Shown here one piece after another: positions 2,799-64,000 of a stretch of DNA of 64,000 nucleotides. Where the stretch lies: positions 256,172 to 320,171 of the forward strand of contig JACRDQ010000030.1 in the NCBI GenBank assembly GCA_016218545.1, in the 5' to 3' direction. The first letter of the stretch is position 1, and the number at the start of each line of letters is the position of its first letter. Both the position numbers and the translations under genes were made by a program. This stretch comes from Elusimicrobiota bacterium. Its GTDB lineage: Bacteria; Elusimicrobiota; Elusimicrobia; UBA1565; UBA9628. The notes below the pieces were generated by a model. It ran no database searches, was not told the DNA's origin, and saw only the letters and a list, made by a program, of their open reading frames with translations.

Positions 2799-4393
2799 GC
2801 CAGGCTCGGCTCGAGCTCGAGCGCGGCCTTGAGCCTGCGGCGGAGGATCTTGGACGACGCGCCTGAGGCGGGGTCGCGGGCATGGAGGCAGGCCGTGTAG
2901 GCCTCGAAGTAGCGGCCGGGAGCCGGGTGGTGGATGCGGAACACGGCCGTGCCTTCCCTCGGGTTCGCATAGAGCTCGGAGGCATAGGGCGTCTGGCGAG
3001 CCCAGGACTCCAGGGTGGGGAGCTTGAGGTACGGCAGTGAAGGGTAGGCGAACTCTCCGGACAGAAGGCCCCTGGAGACATGCAGGTGGGTGACCCCGCG
3101 CGCCAGGGCGGAGGCGAGCCAGGCGTGCCGGTCGTAGACGGTCAAACCCGGCGGGACCGTGCGCCGTCCCGTGAAGAGCTCCACGGTGTGGAAGGCCAGG
3201 CTCTCCACGCGCGCTTCAGCCGGGAGGTTCTCGGCCAGCCAGGCCATGGTCTCCGGCTCGAAGGCCGGCCGCGGGCCCAGCCCCCTAGCCGCAAAGCCCA
3301 GGTCATGGCGCAGGAGGGCTGCGGAGAAGGCCAGCAGCAGGAGGCCGGCGGCCAGGGGTCTGCGCTCCAGCCAGATCCTCAGTGAGGCCATGATGAGGAT
3401 GACGACGAACGGGAGCAGGGCGATGAGATACCTGGCCTCCTTCAGGGGCCAGGTGGAGTGCATGGCGAGCACGAAGATGACGTAGGTCGCCATGGCCGCG
3501 GCCGGGACGCCTTCGCTGCCCCGCGCCAGGCGCACCGAGCCGTGAGCGACGAGGGCCAGGCATCCCAGCCCGGCCGCGGCGCTCAGGGCCTCCGGGCCCG
3601 TGACCCCGGCCAGGCCCTGGCCGAAGAGCGCGCCCAGGAGCCCAAGGACATGTCCGGCCTGCTGGAGCGGGTCGGCGAACAGGAAGGACTGGGACTTCCA
3701 GTTCGCGACGAAGCCGGTGACCGTGTCTCCTGCGAGGAGGTTGCGGAGCATCCAGCCCGCCAGGGGGAGGAAGGCTCCGGCCAGGAAGGCAAGTCCGCGG
3801 CCCCACCCCAGCCTCAGCCACACGGCCATGCCCAGGCTCAGGCCGAGGATGCTGCCCTGGGGCCTGGTCAGGCACCCTAGAGCGGCGGCCAAGGACAGGG
3901 CCGGCAGGGCCCAAGCAGGACTTCCGGGAGCCAGGGCCGCGGCTCCGAGGAAGAGGGCCAGGGACAGGGCGAGATAGGGGATGTCCGCGATCACGAGCCC
4001 GTCGAGGCCCACCAGCACGGGGTTGAGGGCCACGACTAGGGCCGCGGCCAGGGCCCAGCCCGGGGAGAGGAAGCGCAAGGCCAGGCGCCAGGTCAGCCAG
4101 ACCGAGAGCAGGGCGAAGGCGACGATCATGGGCTGGAGCAGGTGCCAGCGAGGCTCGACCAGCCAGGACGGGATGAGGAGCAGGGCCGCAAACCCCGGCA
4201 GGGGATCGGTCACGGCGGCGCCGTCCGCCAAGGCGAAGGCGCCGGTCCTCAGGGACTTGGAGAGGAGGATGAAGAAGGCGTCGTCGTTGAACGCTCCCAC
4301 GGCGAAGCGCCGGGCCGCGAGCAGGTGGAGGCCTGCCAGGGCCAGGCAGGCAGGCGCCAAGAGCCATGCCATGGGGAACGCTCGTCTCTTCAT
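2765..4393 (-). CDS. Tandem paralog of the 1287-2798 gene (GT-C glycosyltransferase-like membrane protein)
   Basis: The N-terminus AFNDDAFFILLSKSLRTGAFALADGAAVTDPLPGFAALLLIPSWLVEPRW is clearly homologous to 1287-2798. The two genes overlap by 34 nt. Confidence 0.5.
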   Translation of the reverse strand: MKRRAFPMAWLLAPACLALAGLHLLAARRFAVGAFNDDAFFILLSKSLRTGAFALADGAAVTDPLPGFAALLLIPSWLVEPRWHLLQPMIVAFALLSVWLTWRLALRFLSPGWALAAALVVALNPVLVGLDGLVIADIPYLALSLALFLGAAALAPGSPAWALPALSLAAALGCLTRPQGSILGLSLGMAVWLRLGWGRGLAFLAGAFLPLAGWMLRNLLAGDTVTGFVANWKSQSFLFADPLQQAGHVLGLLGALFGQGLAGVTGPEALSAAAGLGCLALVAHGSVRLARGSEGVPAAAMATYVIFVLAMHSTWPLKEARYLIALLPFVVILIMASLRIWLERRPLAAGLLLLAFSAALLRHDLGFAARGLGPRPAFEPETMAWLAENLPAEARVESLAFHTVELFTGRRTVPPGLTVYDRHAWLASALARGVTHLHVSRGLLSGEFAYPSLPYLKLPTLESWARQTPYASELYANPREGTAVFRIHHPAPGRYFEAYTACLHARDPASGASSKILRRRLKAALELEPSLACALSAEEPGP

Positions 4394-4458: not shown

Positions 4459-5097
4459 ATGATGAAGATGAGGGGTCCTCTCAAGCCGGTCTTCCTGGCC
4501 GCCGTGCTGGGTATGTGCGGCGCTTCCGCTCAGGCGGAGTCCCAGCGACGCTTCGTGAGCGGGCAGATATGGAAGAACGGCTCCCACTCCTTTTCCATCA
4601 ACGAGTACTCCCTGGGCATCAGCCTCTGGGTCAATGCCTCGGGCTCGAACCTCTATTTCAGCGGCAGGCCCTTCTCCGGTTCGGTGTGGGGCTCCGGGAC
4701 GTACATGACCATCAGCGGCTCCGGCGTCCAGGCGACCGTCAGCAAGTGGGGGAGCAACTATTCCGTCAGGGGCACGTTCCACCCGGCGGCCGGCGGGCAG
4801 GCGGTGCGCGTGGACTTCACCATGCACGCTCTGGGCCGGGAGGACGACCCGGTGCGTCCTCCCTCCTACAGCGTCTACGACGGCGCCTCGGGTGCGAACC
4901 TCAACCTCAACCCCTCGGGCGCAGACGGCTACAGCATCTCAGGCTGGGTGGATACGGAGAAGTTCGGGGCCCACGGCACCTCCCTGGTCGCGCTGGTGGC
5001 CAGCGCCAGCCTCGAGGCCAGGCCCGAGCCCAAGGCCGCGCAAGAGCCGGCGAAGCTGCCCGGGGCCAGGCTGGCCCCCCTGCCTTCTCCTCTCTAG
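4459..5097 (+). CDS. Hypothetical secreted protein with an N-terminal signal peptide
   Basis: MMKMRGPLKPVFLAAVLGMCGASAQA is a signal peptide. The protein is Ser/Gly-rich with no recognisable domain. Confidence 0.55.
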   Translation: MMKMRGPLKPVFLAAVLGMCGASAQAESQRRFVSGQIWKNGSHSFSINEYSLGISLWVNASGSNLYFSGRPFSGSVWGSGTYMTISGSGVQATVSKWGSNYSVRGTFHPAAGGQAVRVDFTMHALGREDDPVRPPSYSVYDGASGANLNLNPSGADGYSISGWVDTEKFGAHGTSLVALVASASLEARPEPKAAQEPAKLPGARLAPLPSPL

Positions 5098-5157: not shown

Positions 5158-6405
5158 TCAGGCGCCATAGCGGCCGACGAGCTCCTCTTTCGTCTTGCCC
5201 AGGATCCCGTGCTTCCTGCCGACCTTGACGAAGGCCTCCAGCGCGCGGTCGAGGTGGCTCGTCTCGTGGCCGGCCGAGATCTGCGTGCGGATGCGGGCCG
5301 TGCCCGGCGGCACCACGGGGTAGAAGAACCCCACGGCGTAGACGCCCTCGTCGAAGAGGTCCCGGGAGAAGTCCTGGGAGAGCTTGGCGTTGAAGAGCAT
5401 GACCGGCACGATGGGGGTGTCGCCCTCCTTGAGGATGAACCCGGCCTCGGCGAGGCCCTTGCGCCAGTAGGCGGCGTTCCTCTCGAGCTTGTCGCGCCGC
5501 TCCGTGCTCTGGGTCAGCATGTCCAGGACCCGCAGGACCCCGGCGACGACGACCGGCGCGATGGTGTTGGAGAAGAGGTAGGGCCGCGCGCGCTGGCGGC
5601 ACATCTCCACGAGCTCCCGGCGGCCGGAGACGCAGCCGCCCGAGGCGCCGCCCAGGGCCTTGCCGAAGGTCGTGGTGATGAGGTCGACCTTGCCCCGGAC
5701 CCCGTACTTCTCCGGCGTGCCCCGGCCGGTCCTGCCGATGAACCCGGTCGCGTGGGAGTCGTCTACGAAGAGCAGCGCCCCATGAGCCTCGCAGAGGCGC
5801 TCCAGCTCGTCGAGCGGCGCGCAGTCGCCGTCCATGGAGAAGACGCCGTCCGTGATGACGACCTTGAGCCTCCTGCCCGCGTGCTTCTCGAGCAGGGAGG
5901 CCAGGTGCGCCATGTCGCAGTGCTGGTAGATGTCGCGCTGGGCCTTGCAGAGCCGGACGCCGTCGATGATGGAGGCGTGGACGAGCCGGTCCGAGATCAT
6001 GACGTCGCGCTCGCCGAGGACGGCCTCGAAGACGCCGGCGTTGGCGTCCATGCAGGAGGGGAAGAGGATGGTGTCCTCGGTGCCCAGGAACTCGGTCATG
6101 CGGGCCTCGAGCTCCTTGTGGATGTCCTGCGTGCCGCAGATGAAGCGCACGGAGGACATGCCGTAGCCGCGGGCGTCCAGGCCCGCGTGCGCCGCCTTGA
6201 CGACCTCGGGGTGGCTGGAGAACCCGAGGTAGTTGTTGGCGCACATGTTGATGACCTTCCTGGGAGAGGCGCCCGCCGGGAACTCCACTTCGATGTCCGC
6301 GGCCTGGGGGGAGCGGATGAAGCGCTCGGCCTTGAAGAGCCCGGAAGCCCTGATGCCCTCGAGCTCCTTCTGGAATCCCTGACGAACCGTCTCGGTGAAA
6401 GCCAT
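5158..6405 (-). CDS. kbl: Glycine C-acetyltransferase (2-amino-3-ketobutyrate CoA ligase), a PLP-dependent enzyme
   Basis: From MAFTETVRQG it aligns end to end with E. coli Kbl, including SVRFICGTQDIHKELE, SDRLVHASIIDGVRLCKA, DGVFSMDGD, TFGKALGGASGG and FFYPVVPPGTARIRTQISAGH. No tdh gene lies next to it. Confidence 0.85.
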   Translation of the reverse strand: MAFTETVRQGFQKELEGIRASGLFKAERFIRSPQAADIEVEFPAGASPRKVINMCANNYLGFSSHPEVVKAAHAGLDARGYGMSSVRFICGTQDIHKELEARMTEFLGTEDTILFPSCMDANAGVFEAVLGERDVMISDRLVHASIIDGVRLCKAQRDIYQHCDMAHLASLLEKHAGRRLKVVITDGVFSMDGDCAPLDELERLCEAHGALLFVDDSHATGFIGRTGRGTPEKYGVRGKVDLITTTFGKALGGASGGCVSGRRELVEMCRQRARPYLFSNTIAPVVVAGVLRVLDMLTQSTERRDKLERNAAYWRKGLAEAGFILKEGDTPIVPVMLFNAKLSQDFSRDLFDEGVYAVGFFYPVVPPGTARIRTQISAGHETSHLDRALEAFVKVGRKHGILGKTKEELVGRYGA

Positions 6406-6602
6406 GGTCCCTCCCGGTCCTCCGCGCCCCAAGACTACCATGATTGGCCGACGGAATCAACCTCGCGCGGGGCCCTGCCCGGGGCGGTTAGGTAGAACTA
6501 CGGAGTGCCCCTTGGGGCTGCCACGGATTGTGTCCCGGCCGGGGGTTGGGGTACCATGAAGTACCGCCCGGCTCCTCGACACGGCCGGGCAGGAGGACCT
6601 CG

Positions 6603-7295
6603 ATGGACTTCTCAAAGCCGCTCTCCATGACCCCTGAAGGACTCGGTCCGCACGCGCACGCCGCCCTCATCCACCTCTCCCGCCAGGAACAGCTCTCCTT
6701 CGTCGTGCCCTATCACCGCTCAGGGCTCGAGCGCGGGGAGAAGTGCGTCTGTGTGGCCGACGCCGACGGCGTCGAGGCCCTGTGGGCCGCCTTGAGGGCC
6801 GCCGGGGTCGACGCGGCCGGGGCCCTGGCCAAGGGGCAGCTCGCGAGCCTCTCCCCCGAGGAGGTCTACCTGAAGGACGGCCGCTTCGACCCTGCCCCGA
6901 CCTTGGCCGTGTTTCGGGGAGCCATCGAGGAGGCTCGCCGGCAGGGGTTCTCCGGGCTGCGGGTTTCCGCGGACATGACCTGGTCCTGCGGCGGGGCCGC
7001 GGCCATGCCGCTCCTGGCGGACTACGAGGCCGAGGTCAACCGCCTCTTCGAGGACCACCCCTTCGGCGCGGTCTGCCAATACGAATACGGCCGCTTCTCC
7101 GCGGACGCCCTGACCAGGGTCGTCTATACCCACCCCTTGGTGATCTTCGGCGGCAGGGTGCACTGGAACCCCTTCTTCATCCCGCCGAACGAGTACCTCA
7201 GGCCGCGGGACCCCGACGCGGAGCTCACGCGCGTGCTGAGCATGCTCTGCCGGGCGTCCTCCATGCGGGAGCGGCCCGTCCCCGTCGTCGTCTGA
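6603..7295 (+). CDS. MEDS-domain sensory protein (methanogen/methylotroph DcmR sensory domain)
   Basis: Translation starts at MDFSKP after a strong AGGAGG SD. Motifs HAALIHLSRQEQLSFVVPY..GEKCVCVAD..LRVSADMTW..YEYGRF match my memory of the MEDS family. Confidence 0.5.
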   Translation: MDFSKPLSMTPEGLGPHAHAALIHLSRQEQLSFVVPYHRSGLERGEKCVCVADADGVEALWAALRAAGVDAAGALAKGQLASLSPEEVYLKDGRFDPAPTLAVFRGAIEEARRQGFSGLRVSADMTWSCGGAAAMPLLADYEAEVNRLFEDHPFGAVCQYEYGRFSADALTRVVYTHPLVIFGGRVHWNPFFIPPNEYLRPRDPDAELTRVLSMLCRASSMRERPVPVVV

Positions 7296-7314
7296 CGGTC
7301 GGGCCCCCCCGCCG

Positions 7315-8064
7315 ATGAGTTATAATGGAAGGGTGACCCCTGGCAAGGCCGACACGAGCGGGCAGGAGGGGATCCGCTATAAGATCCTGACGGTGGATGA
7401 CGACGCCGAGTGCCTCTCCATGCTGCGGGTCTGCCTGAGCCGAGCCGGCCACACGGTGCTGGCCGCGCGCTCCGCCCGCGAAGCCCTGCTGGCCGCTGTG
7501 GACTCCGGTCCGGACCTCGTCATCTCGGACGTCCAGATGGCGGGCGATGACGGCTTCGAGCTCTCGCGCCGCCTCAAGGCCGGCCCCGCGACCGCGCGCA
7601 TCCCCATCATCCTCCTGTCCGGCGCCAGCAAGGATGTCCGGGACCAGCTCGAGGGCTTCGGCCTCGGGGTCGACGACTATCTGATCAAGCCTTTCGAGCC
7701 GGCCCTCCTCCTGGCCAAGGTCCACGCGGTCCTGCGGCGCTACGCCGTCGCCGAGGAGCTGCGGGACGTGGTGAAGTCCAGGGGCGTGGAGCTCGACGTG
7801 CAGGCGCGCACCGTGTCCTGCTCGGGGTCCCCGGTCGCGCTCAGCCGCAAGGAGTTCGACCTGCTCATCACCCTCATCCGCAAGCGGGGCCATGTCTTGA
7901 GCCCGTCGTTCCTCCTGGAATCGGTCTGGAGCCAGGACCTCGCGGAATACAACGATCCGCGCACGGTGAAGGTCCACATCTCGTCCCTGCGAAAGAAGCT
8001 GCCGCCCGCCGTGGCGCGGCGCATCATGACCGTGCCCGGCTCCGGCTACCGCTTCGACGCCTAG
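7315..8064 (+). CDS. OmpR/PhoB-family response regulator (receiver plus winged-helix domains)
   Basis: The receiver has ILTVDDD ... DLVISDVQMAGDDGFEL ... DDYLIKPF. The C-terminal winged helix has LSRKEFDLLITLI..RTVKVHISSLRKKL. Confidence 0.85.
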   Translation: MSYNGRVTPGKADTSGQEGIRYKILTVDDDAECLSMLRVCLSRAGHTVLAARSAREALLAAVDSGPDLVISDVQMAGDDGFELSRRLKAGPATARIPIILLSGASKDVRDQLEGFGLGVDDYLIKPFEPALLLAKVHAVLRRYAVAEELRDVVKSRGVELDVQARTVSCSGSPVALSRKEFDLLITLIRKRGHVLSPSFLLESVWSQDLAEYNDPRTVKVHISSLRKKLPPAVARRIMTVPGSGYRFDA

Positions 8065-8170
8065 GCGCCGGCGGGCTTCTGCCGTCGACCGCGTCCCTGG
8101 CTTGACCTTTTTTTTACCGCCATCCGGCACACTATGATTGGGGACGGCGGACGTCGCGCCGTACGATGCC

Positions 8171-10285
8171 ATGGAAGAAGACAAGAACAAGAAACTGGCC
8201 TTACGCATCGCCTCGTTGTTGGACGACGTCTCGGAAACGCCGGAGCCCCGGGGCTCCGGCGCTCCGAGCCAGCCGGTCATCTCGCTGAGACCCGCCGTGG
8301 TGGAGGCCCTCCCCGCGGGCGCGGATCTCGGCTCTCCCGCGGTCCAGGCCCCTTCCGAGGTCCTGGCCTCGCCCGAGGTCGGGTCCGCTGTGATGGATAT
8401 CCTGCCCATCTGGGCTGACCCCGACTTTCCTGCGGAGCAGGCCGTGCCCGCGCCGGCCGAAGGGGCCGCGGCCAGCGCGGCCCCCAAGAGGTCCGTGCTG
8501 GTGGTCGACGATGACCGGGACTACCGGCGGATGGTCCGGGCCCTGCTTTCCGGCAACGGCTATGACGTCTACGAGGCCGAGGATGGGCGCCGGGCTCTGC
8601 AGTTGATCGCGCTGCACCGTCCGGACCTGGTGCTCGTGGACTTCAACATGCCGCGGATGAACGGCTACGAGATGATCCAGGAGGTGCGGAGCCGGTTCGA
8701 GACCCGCGCCATTCCGATCATCATGTTCACCGGCGCTTCCAACCGGAGCCACCTGCGGAGCCTGGGCATGGCTATCTCGGATTTCCTGGAGAAGCCGGTG
8801 TCCAATGTCAGGCTGCTGGAGAGCATCTCCAGCGTGCTCGGCGCGGAGCCGTCTCCCGAGCTCATGGGAGCGGAGTCCGCCCCGTCTCCCCGGATCGTTG
8901 CGCCGCCGAAGGCTCCGGAGACGACGCCGTCCCCGAAAGTCGTCGCAGCCGAAACCATGGCTGAGAAGCCTCCGGCGGCGCCGGCGGAGCCCGCTCCGAC
9001 GGGCCTGCCGCCGGAGCCGCTCGAAGAAGGGGACGAGGACGGGACCGAGCTCCTGCAGATCGAGGAGGAGAAGAAGGAGGAGGAGAGGCAGGAGGTCATC
9101 AGCCTCGAGCACCAGGCCAATGAGTCCCCGGTCATCAGCCAGGTGAACCGCATCCTCGTCAAGGCCGTGGGGATGCGCGCCTCCGACATCCACATCGAGC
9201 CTCAGGAGAAGCACATCACGGTCCGCGTGAGGGTCGACGGCACTCTCAAGCTCCTGTGCACCCTGCCCCTCTCCATCCATCCCCGCCTGAGCGCCCGCAT
9301 CAAGATCATGTCCAGCCTGGTCATCACGGAGAGACGCCTTCCCCAGGACGGGCAGTTCAAGACCCAGATCAGGGGCAGCCGGGTCGAGTTCCGGGTGAGC
9401 ACGCTCCCGTGCCTGCACGGCGAGAAGATCGTCATGCGCATCTTGGGCACCAGCAAGCTCAACGCCGATCTGGCCCAGATGAGCCTCCGTCCCCGCGACC
9501 TGGGCTGCGTGGAGAGGGCGCTCAGGACCCCTCACGGCCTCATCCTCGTGACCGGCCCCACCGGGAGCGGCAAGACCACCACCCTCTACACCATGATCAG
9601 CGTCCTCAACAAGCCCGAAGTCAACATCCTGACCGCCGAGGACCCCGTGGAGTACGAGGTGCCGGACATCTCGCAGGTCAAGGTCCTGCCGTCCATCGGC
9701 CTGACCTTCGAGTCCGCTCTGCGGGCCTTCCTGAGGCAGGACCCGGACATCATGCTCATCGGCGAGATCCGCGACCTGGAGACGGCCAACATCGCGGTCA
9801 AGGCCTCTATCACCGGACACCTGGTCTTCTCCACCCTGCATACCAACGGCGCCGTCGCCACCGTGACGAGGCTCGTCCACATGGGGGTGGCGCCCTATCT
9901 CGTCGCGGCCAGCGTCAAGCTCGTGGCGGCCCAGCGCCTGGTCCGGGACCTCTGCCCGTCCTGCAAGGTCCCCGGCGAGGTCTCCGACGACGAGAAGAAG
10001 TTCCTCGCGGAGGAGGAGGTCGCCAGGCTCCGATCCGTCTGGCGGAGCGCGGGGTGTCCCGCCTGCCATCAGACGGGGTACTCGGGGCGCTCGGCCCTCT
10101 TCGAGATCATGCCCCTGGACTCGGCGGCCATGCGCCAGCTCATCTGCGCCGGAGACAAGGCGGAGGAGCTCAACCGTCTGGCCCTTGCGGAGGGCATGAC
10201 CACCCTGCGGCAAGCCGCCTTGGAGGCGGTGGCGCGGGGCACGACCTCGTTGAGCGAGGCGCTCAAGGTCATGCTGGGGGGATGA
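8171..10285 (+). CDS. GspE/PilB-family secretion ATPase with an N-terminal disordered segment and a receiver (REC) domain
   Basis: The REC domain is VLVVDDDRDYRRMV..DLVLVDFNMPRMNGYE..EKP. The ATPase core has SDIHIEP, Walker A GPTGSGKTTT, DIMLIGEIRD, and the tetracysteine CPSC..CPAC. The start could instead be the TTG at 8138; the ATG at 8171 is used here. Confidence 0.8.
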   Translation: MEEDKNKKLALRIASLLDDVSETPEPRGSGAPSQPVISLRPAVVEALPAGADLGSPAVQAPSEVLASPEVGSAVMDILPIWADPDFPAEQAVPAPAEGAAASAAPKRSVLVVDDDRDYRRMVRALLSGNGYDVYEAEDGRRALQLIALHRPDLVLVDFNMPRMNGYEMIQEVRSRFETRAIPIIMFTGASNRSHLRSLGMAISDFLEKPVSNVRLLESISSVLGAEPSPELMGAESAPSPRIVAPPKAPETTPSPKVVAAETMAEKPPAAPAEPAPTGLPPEPLEEGDEDGTELLQIEEEKKEEERQEVISLEHQANESPVISQVNRILVKAVGMRASDIHIEPQEKHITVRVRVDGTLKLLCTLPLSIHPRLSARIKIMSSLVITERRLPQDGQFKTQIRGSRVEFRVSTLPCLHGEKIVMRILGTSKLNADLAQMSLRPRDLGCVERALRTPHGLILVTGPTGSGKTTTLYTMISVLNKPEVNILTAEDPVEYEVPDISQVKVLPSIGLTFESALRAFLRQDPDIMLIGEIRDLETANIAVKASITGHLVFSTLHTNGAVATVTRLVHMGVAPYLVAASVKLVAAQRLVRDLCPSCKVPGEVSDDEKKFLAEEEVARLRSVWRSAGCPACHQTGYSGRSALFEIMPLDSAAMRQLICAGDKAEELNRLALAEGMTTLRQAALEAVARGTTSLSEALKVMLGG

Positions 10286-10286
10286 T

Positions 10287-11048
10287 ATGCCCGGCATGCC
10301 GTTGGTCGAGGCCTTTCGGGGCGACCTCACGACCCAGGAGCTCTGTCGTCGGGGACGCCTCAAGCTCAGGCGTTTCGATCCTCCCGGCTACGCGGAGGCC
10401 GTCGCCTTCTTCTCGGACGCGCGGGAAGGCGATCCGGAGTGCGCGGTCTCCGTGGCCGCCCTGGCCGAAGCCTACTCGCACTGGGGTTTCGCGAGGAAGC
10501 TCATAGGGCAGGAGAGCGAGAGCTATTTCCTCCTGGCTTTCGAGAACGCCTGCTTGGCGCTGGAGATGGCCCCTGAACTCGCCGAGACGCACCGGGCCAT
10601 GGCCGTCTGCCTGAGGCACCGGCCGCGCCGCGGCCCCGAGCAGGGACTCGCCGAGGCGTCGGCAGCGGTGAGGATCAACCCTTACGACGCCATGTCCTGC
10701 TACGAGCTCTGGCGGGCGATGGGCCATGACCCCGAGTCACCCATGATCCACAAGGCCCTGGCGCTCGATCCCGCGCTGCTGACCGTCAACAATGACCTGG
10801 CGGTGTCGCTCATGGAAGCGGAGCGCGCCCAAGAGGCCGGCTTCCATCTGCGCCAGTGCCTGCGGGTCAATTACGAGAACGCGGTGGCCCGATACAACAT
10901 GGTCCTGCTCCTCGCCTGCCGCGGCAAGACCGAGCAGGCGCAGACCCTGCTCGAGGCCTGGCTGAAGGGGCCCGATTTCGAGCCGCTGGTGCGCAGCGGG
11001 AACGCGTCGCTGGCTGACCCGCGCTCCACGGGGGGGATCCTCTTATGA
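10287..11048 (+). CDS. TPR-like repeat protein
   Basis: A helical repeat protein whose start is coupled to the GspE stop and whose end overlaps the kinase start. Confidence 0.55.
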   Translation: MPGMPLVEAFRGDLTTQELCRRGRLKLRRFDPPGYAEAVAFFSDAREGDPECAVSVAALAEAYSHWGFARKLIGQESESYFLLAFENACLALEMAPELAETHRAMAVCLRHRPRRGPEQGLAEASAAVRINPYDAMSCYELWRAMGHDPESPMIHKALALDPALLTVNNDLAVSLMEAERAQEAGFHLRQCLRVNYENAVARYNMVLLLACRGKTEQAQTLLEAWLKGPDFEPLVRSGNASLADPRSTGGILL

Positions 11049-13216
11049 ATCGCTTCCAATCTCCGAGCCAAGATGCCGGGGGCAAGACGCCCGATCAACT
11101 CGGCGCAGAGTTCGTCCTCGAGTTGGGAAGGGCCGTCAAGGTCGTGTCCCTGTACTACGCGAACCACCCGACCGCCCTTCAGACCCTCCGGCAAGTCCAC
11201 GCCATCCTGGAGCGGCTGTTGACCGGCCTTTCCGCGGGGCGCGTCACCTTCTCCCTGGCGGCCGGACGCTGGCTCAGGGATGGTTCCCCCCTGCCTGCCC
11301 CGGGTCCGGGCGCGGACTCCCTGCTCGGCGTGTTCGAGACCCACTCCATCGAGAGCCTCACCTTCCTGGGAGGCATCAGGCCCTTCGAGCTGGTCGCTCT
11401 GGCCGAGGTCGCGGCTTCCGTCCCGACGCGTCCGGGCCGCGCCGCGCTCCAGGAGTTCCTCCAGCAGAGAGGAGTGACCCACATCAAAGCGGACATCGAG
11501 CACTATTCCAAGGAGTCGGCTCCGCAGGGCTCGGACGGTTCCCTGGCGTCCGGCTTGCCGGCCGCCTCCTCGTCCGCTGCCAAGCCCCCTGTCGCGCCTT
11601 CCGTTCTCAGGCCTGCCGCGCCTGCGCCCGCTGGCAAGCCTTCAGCGCCTGCGTCCGCTGCCAAGCCCTCCGCGCCTGCGCCCGCTGGCAAGCCTTCGTC
11701 GCCTGCGCCCGCTGCCAAGCCCTCCGCGCCTGCGCCCGCTGGCAAGCCTTCGTCGCCTGCGCCCGCTGCCAAGCCCTCCGCGCCTGCGTCTGCTGCCAAG
11801 CTTGCCGCGCCGTCGCCTTCGGTCGCTCACAGCGTCCCGGCGCAGCCTCCCAAGCCGGCTCTCCCGCCCGTAGAGGTCCGTGCCTCCGCGGCCGGGATGT
11901 GGGGCCCGCCGTCGAGCCCTGCTCCCGACTCTCACGGGGACAGGCTTGGCGTCAGTTTCGGCAGCGTGCTTCGCAAGCTCGTGGAGACCGCGGTGCAGGA
12001 TCCCGACGAGAGGTCCCACATCTACGAGGACGTGGTGGCCATGGTCAAGGAGACCTTGGACCGCCACGTCGACCAGGCGACGCAGGCGCTCTCGGAGGAG
12101 AAGGCGCGCATCGTCAGGCAGGCCGCCAGGACCGAACGGGTGCTCACCACGGTGGCGGACGGAAAGTTCACCGTGGATAAAGAGGGAAGGGTCCTCATGA
12201 TGAACGCCAGCGCCGAGATGATCACGGGAAAGCGTCTGGCCGACCTCGCGGGCAAGCACATCACCGAGGGCGTCAAGGAGGGGGAGCACATGGTCGCGCT
12301 CGCCGAGGACCTGGCGTCCCCGGCCGTGGACGGAGCAGGGGTCACGGTCGTGGCCGATGAGGCGGTGGGCGGCGCCATGCGCCGCTCCCTGGCCCTGGTC
12401 CGAGACGACGCGGGCCGCGTGGTCGGCACGTACGCCTCCCTCCCCGACGCCGCCAAGTTCAAGGAAGCCCAGCGCCTGCAGGAGGAGTTCCTCTCCCGGG
12501 TGACGCACGACCTCCAGTCCCCGCTGGCCGCCATCTGCAGCGGACTCGAGCTCCTCGCGGACAAGGTCAGCTCCGTGGGCGGTCCCGAGACGGCCCAGTA
12601 CATCGACATCTGCATGCGCAACAGCCGTCACCTCTCGGGGATGATCCGCGAGATCCTCGATTTCTCGAAGCTCGACTCGGGCAAGATGACGGTGCACCCG
12701 GCCCCTGTCTCGGCCTCAAGCCTCCTCAAGGAGGCGGTGGAGAGCCTCCAGCCCTGGGCCAAGACCAGGAAGCTCCGCCTGGAAGCGCGTTCTGCCCACG
12801 CGGATTTCTCGGTGCTGGCGGACCAGCCGCGCGTCGTCCAGGTGCTGACCAACCTCATCTCGAACGCGGTCAAGTCCACAAAGGAAGGGGGCTCGATCAC
12901 CGTGGCGGCGGTCCCGGCAGCGGAGGACGGGCAGGGGATCTTCGCGGTGAAGGACACGGGGAGCGGGATCTCCCCTGAGGACCTCGGCCGCATCTTCGAG
13001 AAGTTCGTCCAGGTCGGGGACGGCCGCAGGGACGGGGTGGGACTCGGGCTTTCCATCGTCCAGGAGTTCGTCCGATTGCACGGCGGCGCGGTCTGGGCCG
13101 AGAGCGAGCCCGGCAAGGGTTCGGTGTTCTACTTCACGCTCCCCTTGTCGCAAGCCGGAGTCATCGGCCCCGCGGCGCAGGAGGTCCTGCCGCCTTCGGG
13201 GCGGCCCCGGCACTGA
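11045..13216 (+). CDS. Sensor histidine kinase with an N-terminal domain, a Pro/Ala-rich repeat linker, a PAS-like region, HisKA and HATPase_c
   Basis: H-box SRVTHDLQSPLAAI, N-box NLISNAVKST, and G-boxes DTGSGI and GVGLGLSIV. It shares an operon with the regulator, the REC-GspE fusion and the TPR protein. Confidence 0.8.
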   Translation: MNRFQSPSQDAGGKTPDQLGAEFVLELGRAVKVVSLYYANHPTALQTLRQVHAILERLLTGLSAGRVTFSLAAGRWLRDGSPLPAPGPGADSLLGVFETHSIESLTFLGGIRPFELVALAEVAASVPTRPGRAALQEFLQQRGVTHIKADIEHYSKESAPQGSDGSLASGLPAASSSAAKPPVAPSVLRPAAPAPAGKPSAPASAAKPSAPAPAGKPSSPAPAAKPSAPAPAGKPSSPAPAAKPSAPASAAKLAAPSPSVAHSVPAQPPKPALPPVEVRASAAGMWGPPSSPAPDSHGDRLGVSFGSVLRKLVETAVQDPDERSHIYEDVVAMVKETLDRHVDQATQALSEEKARIVRQAARTERVLTTVADGKFTVDKEGRVLMMNASAEMITGKRLADLAGKHITEGVKEGEHMVALAEDLASPAVDGAGVTVVADEAVGGAMRRSLALVRDDAGRVVGTYASLPDAAKFKEAQRLQEEFLSRVTHDLQSPLAAICSGLELLADKVSSVGGPETAQYIDICMRNSRHLSGMIREILDFSKLDSGKMTVHPAPVSASSLLKEAVESLQPWAKTRKLRLEARSAHADFSVLADQPRVVQVLTNLISNAVKSTKEGGSITVAAVPAAEDGQGIFAVKDTGSGISPEDLGRIFEKFVQVGDGRRDGVGLGLSIVQEFVRLHGGAVWAESEPGKGSVFYFTLPLSQAGVIGPAAQEVLPPSGRPRH
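11630..11819 (+). repeat. Seven tandem 27-nt units, including a perfect 54-bp duplication, encoding (A/G)KPS(A/S)PAPA inside the kinase gene
   Basis: Segments 11658-11711 and 11712-11765 are identical in sequence. Flanking units are degenerate copies. Confidence 0.7.
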
Positions 13217-13298
13217 CGCTCCCGGCCGGCCCGGCGCGGGCCTCCGGGCGACGTCATTGCGGGGGCGGGAACAAGTATGTTACCTTGAAGCCTCCCGC

Positions 13299-14021
13299 AT
13301 GAGCGATACCTGGTACCAGGAACTGGCCCTCCAGTTCGAGGACGGCACGACGGAGTCCGTTTTCCTGGACATGACCCGCAGCGGCAGGCACAAGCCGCGC
13401 GTGGCGGCCATGCCCGCCCCGTGGACGAAGCTGGAGTTCGAGCGCTGCCCGAGCTGCACGCTTCCTCCGGAGGCGGGCTGGTGCCCGGCCGCCCTCTCGC
13501 TGGAGGAGACCATCTCCAGGCTGAGCCAGCGGACCTCCATCGAGATCGTCACCGCGACCTCGGTGGACAGCGAGAACCGCTGTACGACCGTGAAGTGGCC
13601 CCTCCAGCAGGTGGGAGCGGCCTTCGTCCAGATCGCGGTCTTCTCCAGCGGGTGTCCGGTGGGAGCGCAGTTCCGGTCCATGCTCCAGGACCTGCGGCCC
13701 TTCTCCACGACCAAGGAGGTCGGCCGCCACATCGTGCTCAAGCACCTGCTGCGCCACGCCGGCTCGGTCGATGGGGCCAAGGCCGCGGTCCTCGCGAGGC
13801 TGGGGCCGCTCCGGGAGGTCTTCGGTCAGCTCTTCAAGCGCATCCAGGGCATCCCCCGCGGGGCCTCCCAGGACGCCATCCCGAACTCGATCGTGCACGT
13901 GCACGCCATGACCCAGCATCTGGAGCTCATGGTGGAGGACCTCGTGGAGGACCTCCTCAGGGAGACCCAGGTGCCGCCGACTCCGCAGCCCAAGAAGCCT
14001 CCGCCGGATCCGTCGACTTGA
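13299..14021 (+). CDS. Hypothetical protein with CPSC..WCPAA and GCPVG cysteine motifs
   Basis: MSDTWYQELALQFEDG... has no domain I recognise. The track's TTG start at 13257 is less likely than the ATG at 13299. Confidence 0.4.
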   Translation: MSDTWYQELALQFEDGTTESVFLDMTRSGRHKPRVAAMPAPWTKLEFERCPSCTLPPEAGWCPAALSLEETISRLSQRTSIEIVTATSVDSENRCTTVKWPLQQVGAAFVQIAVFSSGCPVGAQFRSMLQDLRPFSTTKEVGRHIVLKHLLRHAGSVDGAKAAVLARLGPLREVFGQLFKRIQGIPRGASQDAIPNSIVHVHAMTQHLELMVEDLVEDLLRETQVPPTPQPKKPPPDPST

Positions 14022-15177
14022 ACTTCCGCTGGTTGTAGTCCGCCCGCGTCACCGTGATGAACCTCTTGGTGGTGTCGCCCTTGTGGTCGAAGACGATCGT
14101 CCCCATCATGCTCTCGTGGCGGATCTCCCTGAGGACGTCGAGGAGCGGCTTGCGGCGCTCGAGCGAGACGGCCAGGGCCGAGACGACCAGGCGTCCCGCC
14201 TCGTAGGCGTAGTGGTCGAAGGTCCTCGGCCCGGCGCCGCCCTCGGGGCGCTCCCGCCGGTAGCGCTCGACGAAGTCCCCGGCGCTGGGCAGGTGCTCCA
14301 CCGGGATGCCGCCCACCGTGAAGTACGCTCCGTGGACCGCGGGGCCGGCGATCTTGAAGATCTCGGGGGCCTTGGCGCCGTCGCCGGTCATGAAGGCTGC
14401 GGTCATGCCCTGGCCGCGCGCCTCCTTGACGATGCGCCCGGCCTCGTTGTAGTCCCCGCCGAAGAAGATGCCGTCCGGCTTGAACCGGGAGGCCCACTCG
14501 ACGACTTCCCTGAAATCCGCGGCGCCCTTGGCCACGGCCTCGGCCGCCACCACGCGGCCTCCCTTCTCCGTGAAGCGCTTGGAGAACTCCTCGGACAGGC
14601 CGCGGCCGTAGGCGGTGCCGTCGTGGAGGACCGCGAAGGCCCTGAGGTTGAGGCGGTCGTAGGCGAACTCCGCGGTGAAGGAGCCCTGGATGTCGTCGGC
14701 AGGCGGCAGGCGGAAGACCACGCGGGGCCAGGACCAGTCCGGCTTGGTCTGCTGGACCGTGAGTTCCGGGTTCGTGGCCGAGGGGGTGATCATGGGGATC
14801 CCGGCCTTGGCGTAGACGCGGGAGGCGGCCAAAGAGCAGCCCGAGGTGAGGTGGCCCACCACGGCCTTGACCTTCGGGTCGGCGGCGATGCGCTCCGCCA
14901 CCCGCACGGCCTCCTCGGGCCGGGCCTGGTCGTCGAAGGCGCTGACCTCGATGCGGGTGGGGGGGAACTCGATGGGCTTGGCCTCGGCTGCGGCCATGCG
15001 CACCGCGGCCAGGAGGCCCTCGCCGTCGGCCGCCAATGGGCCGCTCAGGGGTGCTGCCACCGCGATGCGGACCGTCTTGGGCTCCCCGCCGCCGCAGGCC
15101 GCCAGCAGGGCCGCGAGCGCCAGGGCCTTGGCCCAGGCTGGCTGCGGCCGGCCGGCGGGGCGGGGGGGAGGCTTCAT
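13957..15177 (-). CDS. Periplasmic substrate-binding lipoprotein of the LivJ/LivK branched-chain amino acid family (Peripla_BP_6)
   Basis: A signal peptide and lipobox (LAALLAACGGG), then VRIAVAAPLSGPLAADGEG..KVKAVVGHLTSG..AGIPMITPSATNPELT. No permease or ATPase genes are adjacent. Confidence 0.8.
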   Translation of the reverse strand: MKPPPRPAGRPQPAWAKALALAALLAACGGGEPKTVRIAVAAPLSGPLAADGEGLLAAVRMAAAEAKPIEFPPTRIEVSAFDDQARPEEAVRVAERIAADPKVKAVVGHLTSGCSLAASRVYAKAGIPMITPSATNPELTVQQTKPDWSWPRVVFRLPPADDIQGSFTAEFAYDRLNLRAFAVLHDGTAYGRGLSEEFSKRFTEKGGRVVAAEAVAKGAADFREVVEWASRFKPDGIFFGGDYNEAGRIVKEARGQGMTAAFMTGDGAKAPEIFKIAGPAVHGAYFTVGGIPVEHLPSAGDFVERYRRERPEGGAGPRTFDHYAYEAGRLVVSALAVSLERRKPLLDVLREIRHESMMGTIVFDHKGDTTKRFITVTRADYNQRKFKSTDPAEASWAAESAAPGSP

Positions 15178-15710
15178 CCCCTCAGGTAGAACCTCAGGTT
15201 CTCGACGAGGTCCACGGCCTTGCCGAGCTGGTACTGGCAGGACTCGAGCTCCTTGGCCAGCGAGTCCTCGGGGAGGCTCGCGCGCGCCTCCTCGGCCAGG
15301 AGTTTCAGCGAGGCCCCGGCGTTGACGAGGAGGCTCTTGAGCTCCCGGGTCATGACCGAGGCCGTCTGGTTGGCCGACTCCTCGCGCCGGGTCTGGTCGA
15401 GCGCGGTGTCGAAGGCCGTCTTCTGGGCCTGGGCCGCGGTCTCCTCGACCTCGGAGACCTTCATCCTGGAGGCGATGAGCGCGGCGTGCTCGCGCTCGAG
15501 GTCCCGGCGGACCTCGACGAGCTGGCTCTCGCAGCGCGCGACCTTGGCCCGGAGCTTGCCGATGAGCGCCTCGCGCTGGCGGATCGGGTCGAGGAGCTTG
15601 CGGATGCGCTCGACCGGGCCGCGGAGCGACTGGGGCAGGCGGCTGGAGAGCTCCTTGAGCGCGGCGTCGGCCCTCTCGAGCGCGGCCTGGCTGAACGCCA
15701 TGTTCATATT
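15174..15710 (-). CDS. Coiled-coil hypothetical protein
   Basis: MNMAFSQAALERADAALKEL... is predicted helical throughout. Its stop overlaps the substrate-binding protein start (ATGA). Confidence 0.45.
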   Translation of the reverse strand, partial: NMNMAFSQAALERADAALKELSSRLPQSLRGPVERIRKLLDPIRQREALIGKLRAKVARCESQLVEVRRDLEREHAALIASRMKVSEVEETAAQAQKTAFDTALDQTRREESANQTASVMTRELKSLLVNAGASLKLLAEEARASLPEDSLAKELESCQYQLGKAVDLVENLRFYLRG

Positions 15711-15839
15711 ATGGCAAAAATACCCGGGAAAATGGGGAAAAGCCCGCCGGGTCGGGAAAAACATGATTTCCGTCATTTGAATTAAACGTCCCAAACGGAT
15801 AAAATATGTTTTGCCCTTGAGTTCTTCCGGGGCCTTCCA

Positions 15840-16805
15840 GTGCCGACCCGAACGCAGACGACGACCAGCCTCGAGGCTTCCCTGGGACGGGTGCGCGCAG
15901 GCATGCAAGCCCGCGCCAAGCGCATCTCCGGCCGCGTGGGCTCCGCCCTGGCCGAGCACGTGTCCCGGCCGGGCAAGATGCTCCGGGCGAGGTTCGCGGT
16001 CCAGGTCGGGGCCGCCCTCGGGGTGGCGCCGGGAAAGACCGAGACGGTCGCCCGCGCCATGGAGCTGGCGCACAACGCCTCTCTCCTCCACGACGATTGC
16101 GTCGACGACGCCTCCCTGCGTCGGGGCCTGCCCACGCCCAACAGCGTCTACGGCTCGACCGTGGCGCTCCTCCTGGGGGACATCGCCTTCACCCAGTCGC
16201 TCGAGGAGGCGCTCGAACTCGGCCCCAAGGCCGTGGAGCGCCTCGTGAGCGCGGCGCGCGAGATGGCCATCGGCGAGCTCCAGGAGGAGTTCCTGCGCGG
16301 CTCCGTGGACGTGACCCTCGAGTCCTACATGGGGGTCGCGGCGCGCAAGACCGGGGCCCTCTTCGAGTGGGGCGGCTTGACGCTCTCGGACCTAAGCCCC
16401 CTCGAGCACGCGGCCGCCGACCCCGCCAGGCTGGGCTCGGCGCTCGGCATCCTCCTGCAGATGGTCGACGACATCCACGACTACACCCTGACGGACGCCG
16501 TGGCCGGCAAGGAGCGGGCCAAGGACGCCAAGATCGGGCGCGTGACCCTTCCCGGGGTCTTTGCGCTCGCGGACGCCTCCCGCCGGGGGCGCTTCCTCGA
16601 GTTGTGGGCCGCGCTGCGCCGGGACCCGCGCGCCGCCTCGGACCTGGCGCGCTTCCTCGACGAGAGCGGGTCGCTCGACGAGGCCCGCGCCGAGTGCCGC
16701 AAGGTGGTCGGGACCATCCTCGAGCTGACCCGGCGCCTGCCGGTCCGGGGAGAGGTCGACGAGGTGGCCGAGTTCGTCTCGGCCATGGCCGAGAGGGAAT
16801 TCTGA
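15840..16805 (+). CDS. Trans-polyprenyl diphosphate synthase (IspB/hepta- or octaprenyl-PP synthase family), or possibly a ComQ-like isoprenyl transferase
   Basis: GTG start. First Asp-rich motif LLHDDCVDDASLRRG, second motif MVDDIHDY, and GKERAKDAKIGRVTLP. It is the first gene of the radical-SAM operon. Confidence 0.85.
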   Translation: MPTRTQTTTSLEASLGRVRAGMQARAKRISGRVGSALAEHVSRPGKMLRARFAVQVGAALGVAPGKTETVARAMELAHNASLLHDDCVDDASLRRGLPTPNSVYGSTVALLLGDIAFTQSLEEALELGPKAVERLVSAAREMAIGELQEEFLRGSVDVTLESYMGVAARKTGALFEWGGLTLSDLSPLEHAAADPARLGSALGILLQMVDDIHDYTLTDAVAGKERAKDAKIGRVTLPGVFALADASRRGRFLELWAALRRDPRAASDLARFLDESGSLDEARAECRKVVGTILELTRRLPVRGEVDEVAEFVSAMAEREF

Positions 16806-17002: not shown

Positions 17003-17254
17003 ATGAAGCTCGCACCGTTCGTGAAATTCCGTGAAGAGAAGTTCGGCGCGGTCCTGTTCGAGACCCGTTCCGAGAAGGTGTTCACCCTCAATCCGACGGC
17101 CGCGGACGTGGTGCGGGAGCTCCTCGCCGGCGCCTCGGAGGGCGAGATCGGAGAGCGCCTCAAGGGCCGCTACAGCGACCCCTCGGGCAGGCTCGCCGAC
17201 GAGGCCAAGGCCCTCGTGCGCCAGCTCCGCGACAAGGGGCTCATCGCGGACTAG
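17003..17254 (+). CDS. PqqD-family peptide chaperone (RiPP recognition element)
   Basis: MKLAPFVKFREEKFGAVLFETRSEKVFTLNPTAADVVRELLAGASEGEIGERL..LRDKGLI has the PqqD/MftB pattern. A strong SD (GGGGAGGG) sits 5 nt upstream of the ATG at 17003. The in-frame extension back to 16805 is possible but less likely. Confidence 0.7.
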   Translation: MKLAPFVKFREEKFGAVLFETRSEKVFTLNPTAADVVRELLAGASEGEIGERLKGRYSDPSGRLADEAKALVRQLRDKGLIAD

Positions 17255-17255
17255 C

Positions 17256-18254
17256 ATGGCTTCGAGGAAGGACGCGGTCAAGGCCGGAGGCCGGGCGTCC
17301 CGGGCGCCCTTGGAAGAGGCGTTGGCGCCCGGGATGCGGGCGCCGCTCTACATCGGCTGGCAGCTGACCAATGCCTGCGACCTGGCGTGCGTCCACTGCA
17401 TCGAGGAGTCCGGGCCGGGCCGCGCCTTCAAGGACGAGCTGACCCGGGAGCAGGCCTTCCGTATCCTCGAGCAGATCAAGACCGAGCAGGTGCCCTACGT
17501 CGCCTTCTCCGGGGGCGAGCCCTTCCTCCACCCGCACTTCCTGGAACTGGCCGCGTTCCTCGGAGACGCCGGGGTGTCGCTCAAGGTCGAGACCAACGGC
17601 CGCCACCTCACCGAGGCGGCCGCCTCGGCGCTGCGGGACCACGGAGTCCGGGCCGTGCAGGTCAGCCTCGACGGCGCCACCCCCGAGGCCTACCGCAAGG
17701 TGCGGCCCTCCGGCGACCACGCCCGGGTCCTGGCAGGCATCCGCCTCCTGCGCTCCAGGGGCGTGGAGGTGGAGGTCAACTTCGTCCCGACGCGGCACAA
17801 CGTCCATGAGATCGGAGCCGCCGTGGACCTGGCCTTCAGCGAGGGGGTCTCCGGCTTCTACACGGGCAGGCTCATCCTGGCCGGCCACGCCGCCAAGGCG
17901 CGGGACCTGGCCCCGACCCAGGAGCAGTACGACGCCTTCTTCGCGTGCCTCAAGGCCAAGGCCCAGGAGTACAAGGGCCGCATGACCGTGCGCTATCACG
18001 AGCTGGGCATCGCGCAGGAGGTCCGCTACCGCATGGCCAACCCCGCGGCCCTCTTCGTCATCCTGCCCGACGGCAGGGTGAAGCTCCTCAACGCCCTGCC
18101 GTTCGTGTGCGGCGACCTGCGCGAGCAGAGCCTCACCGAGGTCTGGAAGGCCTTCCTCGCGGGCTGGAAGTCGCCGCGGGTGGCCGACTTCGTCGGCCGC
18201 CTGGAGGCCGACCCCGGGCTCCTGCAAGGACTGCACCGATGGATCCCTTTGTGA
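17256..18254 (+). CDS. Radical-SAM enzyme, PqqE/MftC-like core without the full SPASM cysteine set (paralog 1)
   Basis: WQLTNACDLACVHC is a CxxxCxxC motif. FSGGEPFLHPHF is the SAM-binding motif. The C-terminus ILPDGRVKLLNALPFVCGDL looks like a vestigial half-SPASM with a single Cys. Confidence 0.85.
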   Translation: MASRKDAVKAGGRASRAPLEEALAPGMRAPLYIGWQLTNACDLACVHCIEESGPGRAFKDELTREQAFRILEQIKTEQVPYVAFSGGEPFLHPHFLELAAFLGDAGVSLKVETNGRHLTEAAASALRDHGVRAVQVSLDGATPEAYRKVRPSGDHARVLAGIRLLRSRGVEVEVNFVPTRHNVHEIGAAVDLAFSEGVSGFYTGRLILAGHAAKARDLAPTQEQYDAFFACLKAKAQEYKGRMTVRYHELGIAQEVRYRMANPAALFVILPDGRVKLLNALPFVCGDLREQSLTEVWKAFLAGWKSPRVADFVGRLEADPGLLQGLHRWIPL

Positions 18255-20109: not shown

Positions 20110-20129
20110 GCCGGGATTTAGGAGACAGC

Positions 20130-20255
20130 ATGAGAGACAAGAAGAACGTGACGGATGGAAAGGCGAAGGCCGACAAGAAGCCCGTGTGGCAGACCCCTTC
20201 TCTCGAAGAGGTCACCGAGCGTGTCATGGCCCAGCCGTACATCAGGTTCACGTGA
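20130..20255 (+). CDS. Candidate 41-aa RiPP precursor peptide
   Basis: MRDKKNVTDGKAKADKKPVWQTPSLEEVTERVMAQPYIRFT. GGAGA lies 5 nt upstream of the ATG. It is the only gap in an otherwise overlapping operon, and its TGA stop overlaps the GTG of the next radical-SAM gene. Confidence 0.5.
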   Translation: MRDKKNVTDGKAKADKKPVWQTPSLEEVTERVMAQPYIRFT

Positions 20256-49192: not shown

Positions 49193-49213
49193 AGCATTTG
49201 ATATGATGGTCGG

Positions 49214-58145: not shown

Positions 58146-58267
58146 CTTCAGCAGTAGTGTGGGTCCCCTGACCCTCCCGCGACAGGGCCCATGGGCCCAG
58201 GAGCGGGTGGGACTTTGGTCCCAGGACCCCATCTTACCATATCCCGGGGCCGATGTTGTATAATCAT

Positions 58268-62671: not shown

Positions 62672-64000
<1,329 letters not shown>

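Follow-up and report, generated by a model that had tools for sequence, protein, structure and literature searches.

The window analyzed here is a 64,000-nucleotide stretch (positions 256,172 to 320,171) of contig JACRDQ010000030.1 from an Elusimicrobiota bacterium, with a GC content of ≈70%. Within it, codon-position GC picks out a run of same-strand genes at 6528–14021, which includes a gene for a PilB/GspE-type ATPase fused to a response regulator receiver (REC) domain. A gene for an OmpR-type DNA-binding response regulator precedes the ATPase gene, and genes for a tetratricopeptide repeat (TPR) protein and a PAS histidine kinase follow it (Table 1). A first-pass annotation made from the sequence alone had described these four genes as a signaling operon, and Pfam searches confirm its open reading frames (ORFs), coordinates, and domains. 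The ATPase, TPR, and kinase genes had also been described as translationally coupled, and their junctions agree: the first two meet in TGA-T-ATG, with a 1-nt gap (10283–10289), and the last two share a 4-nt ATGA overlap (11045–11048). By its junctions, the TPR gene is translationally coupled on both sides. The ATPase product is identical to a public protein (P0001) that NCBI names 'Flp pilus assembly complex ATPase component TadA', and the codon-position GC of its gene (0.66/0.46/0.91) is typical of the real genes of the window.

Domain searches establish the fusion proposed in the first-pass annotation, with a match of 87.9 bits to Response_reg (PF00072; cutoff 30.2) and one of 429.8 bits to T2SSE (PF00437; cutoff 24.9), the latter spanning residues 326–709 in TTG-start numbering. 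We modeled the protein with AlphaFold2 using an alignment of 45 family sequences (mean predicted local distance difference test score, pLDDT, of 72). In this model, the receiver region shows the alternating strands and helices expected of a receiver fold, and the N-terminal stretch and the low-complexity linker flanking it, both noticed in the first reading, are disordered. The phospho-acceptor Asp157 and Asp114 are each kept in 118 of 118 aligned family sequences, position 113 is Asp or Glu, position 187 is Thr or Ser in 116 of 120 sequences, and Lys208 is found in 120 of 120, so that neither the acceptor Asp nor the conserved Lys is missing. Receiver helix 1 contributes to kinase specificity in two-component systems; in this family, it carries an invariant, family-specific D117-Y118-R119 (DYR) motif. 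Judged by these residues, the REC domain appears to be genuine and functional as a receiver. A recurrent ...LDAMF... consensus motif is visible in most family N termini. The linker at residues 233–299 is unconserved across the family, and it lies where ordinary extension ATPases have their N1 (GSPII/MshEN) domain.

The ATPase core is likewise preserved. Its Walker A, Asp box, Walker B, His box, and ERRxPQDG motifs are invariant or nearly so across 120 family sequences, and each cysteine of a tetracysteine motif (Cys595, Cys598, Cys629, and Cys632), a Zn-binding type that characterizes extension and secretion ATPases, is present in 120 of 120; by its motifs, the core is catalytically complete. 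Among solved structures, the best match is to PilB from Myxococcus xanthus (3jc8; 382 bits over the core), followed by Geobacter PilB and then by EpsE from Vibrio cholerae (352 bits). The top NCBIfam match is the PilB model TIGR02538, with 524.5 bits over model positions 152–561 only. Since the alignment to the PilB model begins at model position 152, the N1/GSPII domain is absent, and Pfam gave no match to MshEN (T2SSE_N) in this protein. The receiver stands in place of the N1 domain.

A degenerate pseudo-receiver, a decaying extra paralog, or an artifact of annotation or assembly could in principle produce such a gene, and the merely generic naming at NCBI and the low complexity of the N terminus and linker would fit such an origin. 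However, the five signature residues of a receiver and the full set of ATPase motifs are conserved, codon-position GC is gene-like, and the same architecture occurs on many independent contigs from several sources. The conservation data contradict a pseudo-receiver, a decaying paralog, or an assembly artifact, and we reject these explanations as highly implausible.

Table 1. Coordinates of the gene cluster, its domains and motifs, and the second ATPase of the window (position 1 is the first nucleotide of the window).
Feature	Position	Strand	Evidence or remark
MEDS-domain protein	6528..7295	+	Pfam MEDS 152.9 bits; 20 bp 5' of OmpR-type regulator
OmpR-type DNA-binding response regulator	7315..8064	+	Pfam Response_reg 74.3 bits, Trans_reg_C 74.5 bits
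OmpR-type regulator, REC	≈7384-7722	+	
OmpR-type regulator, winged helix	≈7825-8055	+	
Regulator/ATPase intergenic gap, ≈107 bp, with T-rich tract	8065..8170	+	Sequence reading
REC-fused PilB/GspE-type ATPase, 704 aa from ATG at 8171	8171..10285	+	Pfam Response_reg and T2SSE
ATPase, short N-terminal helix (residues 2-18) with ...LDAMF... motif	8174..8224	+	AlphaFold2 pLDDT ≈76
ATPase, disordered Pro/Ala-rich stretch (residues 21-102)	8231-8476	+	pLDDT <50
ATPase, receiver domain (residues 105-225)	8483..8845	+	pLDDT >90
ATPase, codon of phospho-acceptor Asp157	8639-8641	+	Further receiver residues D113/D114, T187, K208
ATPase, disordered Pro/Ala/Glu low-complexity linker (residues 233-299)	8867..9067	+	pLDDT <50
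ATPase core, N2 (residues 320-430) and C-terminal domain (residues 440-704)	9128..10282	+	AlphaFold2, Pfam T2SSE
ATPase, Walker A (residues 462-469)	9554-9577	+	
TPR protein, cytoplasmic	10287..11048	+	Pfam TPR_19 25.0 bits, equal to the gathering cutoff of 25 (weak)
PAS histidine kinase	11045..13216	+	Pfam PAS, HisKA, HATPase_c
Kinase, N-terminal domain (≈150 residues)	≈11045-11524	+	Conserved K..LY...HP and W/E/G/Y pattern
Kinase, Pro/Ala/Lys-rich repeat linker	≈11537-11944	+	
Kinase, tandem repeat in linker, 54 bp x 3.4 (sub-period 27 bp x 7.4)	11611-11811	+	
Kinase, PAS	≈12128-12448	+	Pfam; core conserved
Kinase, HisKA	≈12479-12682	+	Pfam; core conserved
Kinase, HATPase_c	≈12821-13150	+	Pfam; core conserved
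DUF6901 protein	13257..14021	+	Pfam DUF6901 61.3 bits; 41 bp 3' of kinase
Second extension-type ATPase, MshEN and T2SSE	62672..64000	+	MshEN 63.8 bits, T2SSE 229.8 bits; cut by window/contig end

The REC-fused ATPase belongs to a conserved, widespread, phylum-wide family of the Elusimicrobiota. Its best 120 homologs are 50 to 67% identical to it, with REC and T2SSE precomputed in all but one partial sequence, and the REC-T2SSE architecture is common to more than 115 protein clusters. NCBI annotation of the family is generic, either the TadA name above or 'ATPase, T2SS/T4P/T4SS family'. The first-pass annotation had treated the fusion as a single curiosity, a view that does not survive, since the family spans the phylum and similar fusions occur in other phyla. 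For gene neighborhoods, we sampled four relatives by exact look-up and ten more from a scan of species-representative genomes (L001–L014), using tblastn with the window proteins. The scan was saturated by generic PilB patterns (LRQDPDIM and ITERR.PQD), which left 10 family loci among 80, and the taxonomic spread is therefore sampled rather than measured.

An orthologous kinase lies directly 3' of the ATPase gene, or after the TPR gene, in 12 of the 13 informative family loci. These kinases have the same distinctive N-terminal domain, and their linkers differ greatly in length. The N-terminal domain of the window's kinase has no Pfam match, a homolog search with it came back empty, and a profile search of PDB sequences returned spurious matches only; an AlphaFold2 model from the single sequence reached a pLDDT of 46 and was unusable. 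We take the kinase to be soluble because reading of its sequence, done by eye rather than with a predictor, showed no hydrophobic transmembrane stretch.

The other partners are less constant. A TPR gene occurs in 5 of 14 loci, with orthologs of 40 to 45% identity between the ATPase and kinase genes in L003, L005, L010, and L011, making the TPR protein an optional component of the family; its N terminus, as judged by reading, is unlike a signal peptide. At least 7 of 14 loci have a DNA-binding regulator beside the ATPase, OmpR-type in the window and in L004, L005, L011, and L013 and AraC-type in L001 and L002. The fused receiver might then act mainly as a phosphate sink or competitor that tunes the flow from the kinase to this regulator, with the ATPase itself unaffected by phosphorylation. 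That explanation would sit well with the frequent adjacency of the regulator and with the long disordered linker, which makes allosteric coupling less obvious, and sink receivers such as PilH have been proposed in pilus signaling, as a review summarizes (PMC11656802). Yet the kinase is paired with the ATPase in 12 of 13 loci and with a regulator in about half, the regulator switching between OmpR and AraC types. A sink, moreover, has no need of fusion to a conserved motor of ≈400 residues, and this fusion is stable over more than 115 clusters, with similar fusions recurring in separate clades. On balance, we regard a pure sink as improbable.

With an intact receiver, a complete ATPase core, and a syntenic kinase in 12 of 13 loci, phosphorylation control is the natural reading of this gene set. 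We propose, with a probability of roughly 0.55, that the protein is a phosphorylation-gated extension-type motor serving a type IV filament machine whose genes lie elsewhere. In this scheme, the soluble PAS histidine kinase would sense a cytoplasmic cue and phosphorylate Asp157 of the fused receiver, which a disordered linker of ≈70 residues tethers to a complete core of the hexameric PilB/GspE type. In this position, the receiver would take over from the N1 domain, which in ordinary extension ATPases receives cyclic diguanosine monophosphate (c-di-GMP) or contacts the membrane machinery. Phosphorylation may then gate the motor through its assembly into hexamers, which would be either promoted or released, or through recruitment of the protein to a PilC/PilM-type platform encoded elsewhere. 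The OmpR-type regulator could provide a parallel transcriptional output of the same kinase, and the TPR protein may serve as an optional cytoplasmic adaptor. We infer that the adjacent kinase is the phosphodonor of the fused receiver, that phosphorylation alters the activity or localization of the ATPase, and that the motor serves a machine resembling a type IV pilus.

Several observations weigh against this proposal. The long disordered linker of the AlphaFold2 model speaks against a rigid allosteric coupling of receiver and ATPase. The TIGR02538 score lies below the equivalog cutoff for PilB (675.65), as does that for the GspE model TIGR02533 (504.5 bits, cutoff 630.25), and the protein is missing the N1 domain through which GspE binds GspL. 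The one family locus L007 has no kinase, and neither does L012, which encodes a more distant REC-ATPase. A gene for the T2SSF platform protein is found near 0 of 18 REC-fused loci as compared with 51 of 71 other PilB-like loci (Fisher p = 1.1e-8), the control rate of 72% being a lower bound given that some control loci are incomplete. No platform, pilin, or secretin gene was present in the examined flanks of any of the 18 loci, and in two ordinary PilB loci used as controls, we verified the gene order pilB-pilT-pilC-pilS. The window itself gave the same result. A Pfam scan of the called ORFs across its 64 kb detected no T2SSF, pilin, PilM/N/O, or secretin gene, and the T2SSF profile matched none of its ORFs of ≥150 aa, so the absence of partner genes reported in the first reading stands.

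These absences raise the alternative that the ATPase is controlled by phosphorylation but works outside the filament business, as a stand-alone, signal-driven motor or scaffold without a PilC-type platform. Such a protein might remodel or translocate a cytoplasmic or membrane substrate or act in regulation, as M. xanthus PilB does for exopolysaccharide. Besides the T2SSF counts, the alternative draws on the loss of the machine-facing N1 domain, on the finding that PilB-like proteins with a C-terminal REC or a cNMP-binding domain are also orphans, and on the conserved neighbors, all of which are signaling proteins. The N1 domain of PilB is described as the regulatory and machine-facing domain in the 2024 review of PilB control (PMC11656802). 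The core, however, closely resembles that of PilB and has lost none of its motifs, the Zn-binding tetracysteine included, at 60 to 80% identity within the family. Such conservation is typical of a motor still acting on a conserved partner and therefore counts against a platform-independent role. Synteny, for its part, does not discriminate between the two explanations, because the unfused PilB-type ATPase of this lineage is equally unlinked, as described below. We consider a role without a platform unlikely.

That unfused protein is a second, conventional GspE/PilB with an N-terminal MshEN (T2SSE_N) domain, noticed in the first-pass annotation at 62672 and confirmed by both Pfam domains; its public record (P0121; 450 aa) is marked partial. 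In three of three relatives examined (69 to 93% identity), the MshEN-PilB gene is unlinked from pilT and pilC. Pilin and prepilin peptidase genes lie ≈8 kb from it in one of the three. With these genes present in a relative and MshEN-PilB likewise unlinked, scattered machine genes are normal in the lineage, and missing neighbors are no proof of a non-secretory role. Of the suggestions made in the first reading, phosphorylation control of the ATPase holds as the natural interpretation, and the step to a non-secretory role is weak. In all three relatives (L085 and L090 10001-13131 among them), the MshEN-T2SSE gene is followed by one encoding GAF and HD_5 (HD-GYP-like) domains, which suggests a dedicated c-di-GMP hydrolase partner; the surrounding EF-P, HAD, subtilase, and DUF192 genes are conserved as well. 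Both extension-type ATPases of the lineage are unlinked from the machine, and each is wired to its own signaling partner, c-di-GMP-related for MshEN-PilB and a His-Asp phosphorelay for the REC-fused ATPase.

The cores of the two ATPases are only 42% identical. The REC-fused protein reaches 524 bits against the PilB model with its core alone, and the MshEN protein needs its full length for 528 bits. Against structures that contain the core only, the REC-fused protein scores higher, with 315 versus 294 bits for Thermus thermophilus PilF and 352 versus 301 bits for V. cholerae EpsE. These core scores favor the REC-fused ATPase as the more PilB-like of the two, and the label of an extra paralog, which the first-pass annotation had given it, is therefore unsupported.

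To place the family among other sensor-fused ATPases, we searched 1.84 billion representative proteins and mapped domains on the best 150 representatives with hidden Markov models built from the family. Among these 150, REC is N-terminal in 42 and C-terminal in 57, 36 are plain, and 15 scored two cores; as the query itself contains a REC, proteins with this domain are overrepresented in the list. The two-core group comprises 14 tandem T2SSE-T2SSE proteins of ≈1000 aa and one apparent single core that is split. The tandem proteins (P0244 and relatives, 14 representative clusters) carry the name 'General secretory pathway protein E' in Parcubacteria. Named sources of the representatives include Elusimicrobia, Thermodesulfovibrionales, Omnitrophota, and Parcubacteria, and N- and C-terminal REC fusions are also present in Nitrospirota and Omnitrophota. 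A neighbor-joining tree of the cores, which carries no support values and was used only for clade coherence and not to count fusion events, groups the window's family as a single clade inside a broader N-terminal-REC group, apart from both the Elusimicrobial MshEN paralogs and the C-terminal-REC clade.

Other members of this set combine or exchange sensory domains. One MshEN-T2SSE-REC protein (P0281; L086 10001-12175, +), which joins an N-domain of the c-di-GMP type to a C-terminal receiver, is an orphan among housekeeping genes; it represents a large C-terminal-REC clade, Omnitrophota included. Around three REC fusions from outside the family, we saw no pilus genes. Desulfobulbus rhabdoformis DSM 8777 (L020 9404-11653, +) and other Desulfobulbales encode an MshEN-T2SSE-cNMP_binding ATPase (≈750 aa in L020). 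Eleven further loci of the Desulfobulbales type (L019, L025, L030, L032, L039, L041, L047, L050, L057, L063, and L080) encode PilB-like proteins of similar length, the C-terminal extension being unscanned in these, and no T2SSF was found in the examined flanks of L020 or of these listed loci. PilB-type ATPases thus have modular sensory ends, which can be MshEN, an N- or C-terminal REC, or cNMP_binding.

This pattern invites a wider and more tentative idea, which we think possible but doubtful: the receiver-fused protein could be the principal type IVa-like extension motor in Elusimicrobiota, and orphan PilB-type ATPases with interchangeable sensory ends could form an unrecognized class of 'motor response regulators'. 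If so, such proteins would dock on shared filament platforms on demand, and the choice of motor, and perhaps of filament, would depend on the signal that fires. In a bolder form of the idea, they would work without any PilC-type platform.

The cluster probably extends from the MEDS gene to the DUF6901 gene. The MEDS gene, possibly the first cluster gene in this genome, faces a divergently transcribed aminotransferase gene. MEDS is not conserved among the family loci, and tblastn with the window proteins found no MEDS homolog beside the ATPase in the relatives L001–L014; given this absence, the gene is an accessory or local addition. The DUF6901 gene possibly belongs to the cluster and recurs once, in L011, where the homolog (8146-8727, -) adjoins the OmpR-type regulator, a hint of a loose tie to the module. 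The gap between the regulator and ATPase genes is a possible internal promoter or attenuator, and a consensus scan of it gave neither a sigma-70-like site nor a terminator on the same strand. Promoter, terminator, and Rfam scans over 6000-14500 produced nothing informative. PADLOC found no significant defense-system match among six cluster proteins, with weak generic P-loop and REC matches below 21 bits.

Elsewhere in the window, three consecutive or overlapping radical-SAM genes (17031-18254, 18610-20109, and 19796-21226, +) adjoin a polyprenyl synthetase gene (15840-16805). An ORF without a Pfam match (15174-16091, -) overlaps the synthetase gene on the opposite strand and is perhaps not a genuine gene. 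Two further ORFs without Pfam matches (2765-4393, -, and 4459-5097, +) both have gene-like codon-position GC. A second signaling cluster (45726-53259, +) encodes an FHA-adenylate/guanylate cyclase, two TPR proteins, and a TPR-Ser/Thr protein kinase, with a Ham1-TPR fusion (41199-43493) upstream of it. A REC-HisKA-HATPase_c kinase with an N-terminal receiver (56952-58232, -) adjoins a heptosyltransferase gene, in a neighborhood conserved in L085 and L090.

The REC-fused PilB-type ATPases are apparently an unstudied family. We found no description of a receiver-fused PilB/GspE in the literature searched or, on targeted reading, in the 2024 review of PilB regulation (PMC11656802); an earlier mention in Galperin's 2006 census of response regulators is possible. 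The architecture is already on record in automated pipelines, with one IMG name reading 'PilB-like protein/CheY-like...', and current automated annotation calls these proteins 'TadA' or a generic 'T2SS/T4P/T4SS ATPase'. When and where a pilus extension motor fires is an open problem, and the known inputs are c-di-GMP through N1/MshEN, adaptors such as PilZ-FimX, and response regulators acting in trans. A natural fusion of a receiver to a PilB core, with a kinase beside it, offers a minimal system for studying phosphorylation control of a PilT-like hexamer. It also extends the range of response-regulator output domains by a motor ATPase and wires two-component signaling directly to a motor of the pilus/secretion type. 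Searches that detect type IV filaments by their gene clusters will miss unlinked, sensor-fused ATPases of this kind.

Comparison with known systems shows which features are shared and which are distinct. The closest likeness is to PilB (M. xanthus 3jc8; Geobacter 5tsg, 5zfr, and 6olj), with which the N2 and C-terminal core aligns over its whole length at 382 bits, including the Walker A, Asp box, Walker B, and His box motifs, the arginine-rich ERRxPQDG, and the tetracysteine Zn site. The REC-fused ATPase differs from PilB in having a receiver and disordered linkers instead of N1 (GSPII/MshEN) and in being unlinked to pilT and pilC, in contrast to the pilB-pilT-pilC-pilS order of the control loci. 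GspE/EpsE shares the Zn tetracysteine and is matched by the core with 352 bits for V. cholerae EpsE and 504 bits for TIGR02533, slightly below the score for PilB, but the REC-fused ATPase lacks the N1E domain for GspL binding, and no gsp cluster accompanies it.

The logic of a sensory N-terminal domain on a PilB/GspE core is the same as in the MshE/MshEN types (V. cholerae MshE and the PilB proteins of M. xanthus and C. thermophilum). MshEN-type ATPases couple a cellular signal, c-di-GMP, to filament assembly (PMC4624772, PMC10333796, PMC11656802). Unlike these, the input here would be His-Asp phosphotransfer from a dedicated kinase rather than a nucleotide second messenger. Receiver phosphorylation also controls the activity or localization of pilus extension motors through the PATAN-REC proteins PixG and PixH in Synechocystis and through PilG and PilH in Pseudomonas aeruginosa (PMC11181946, bioRxiv 10.1101/2021.06.11.447907, PMC10519157, PMC11656802). 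In these systems, the receivers are proteins of their own, and chemotaxis-like CheA kinases feed them; for the trans-acting PilG and PilH, a direct contact with PilB has not been reported (PMC11656802). Here, by contrast, the receiver is fused to the motor and is probably fed by a neighboring, classical HisKA kinase.

The best precedent for the mechanism of the fusion, by analogy, may be the NtrC family. NtrC, NtrC1, and DctD carry an N-terminal receiver on a ring ATPase, and phosphorylation switches ring assembly. The REC-fused ATPase differs from them in its fold, which is PilT-like ASCE and not that of an AAA+ sigma-54 activator, in having no DNA-binding domain, and in its linker, which is long and disordered instead of a coiled coil. 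Overall, the family consists of PilB-type extension ATPases with a phosphorelay input module, a well-defined and experimentally tractable arrangement of familiar principles.

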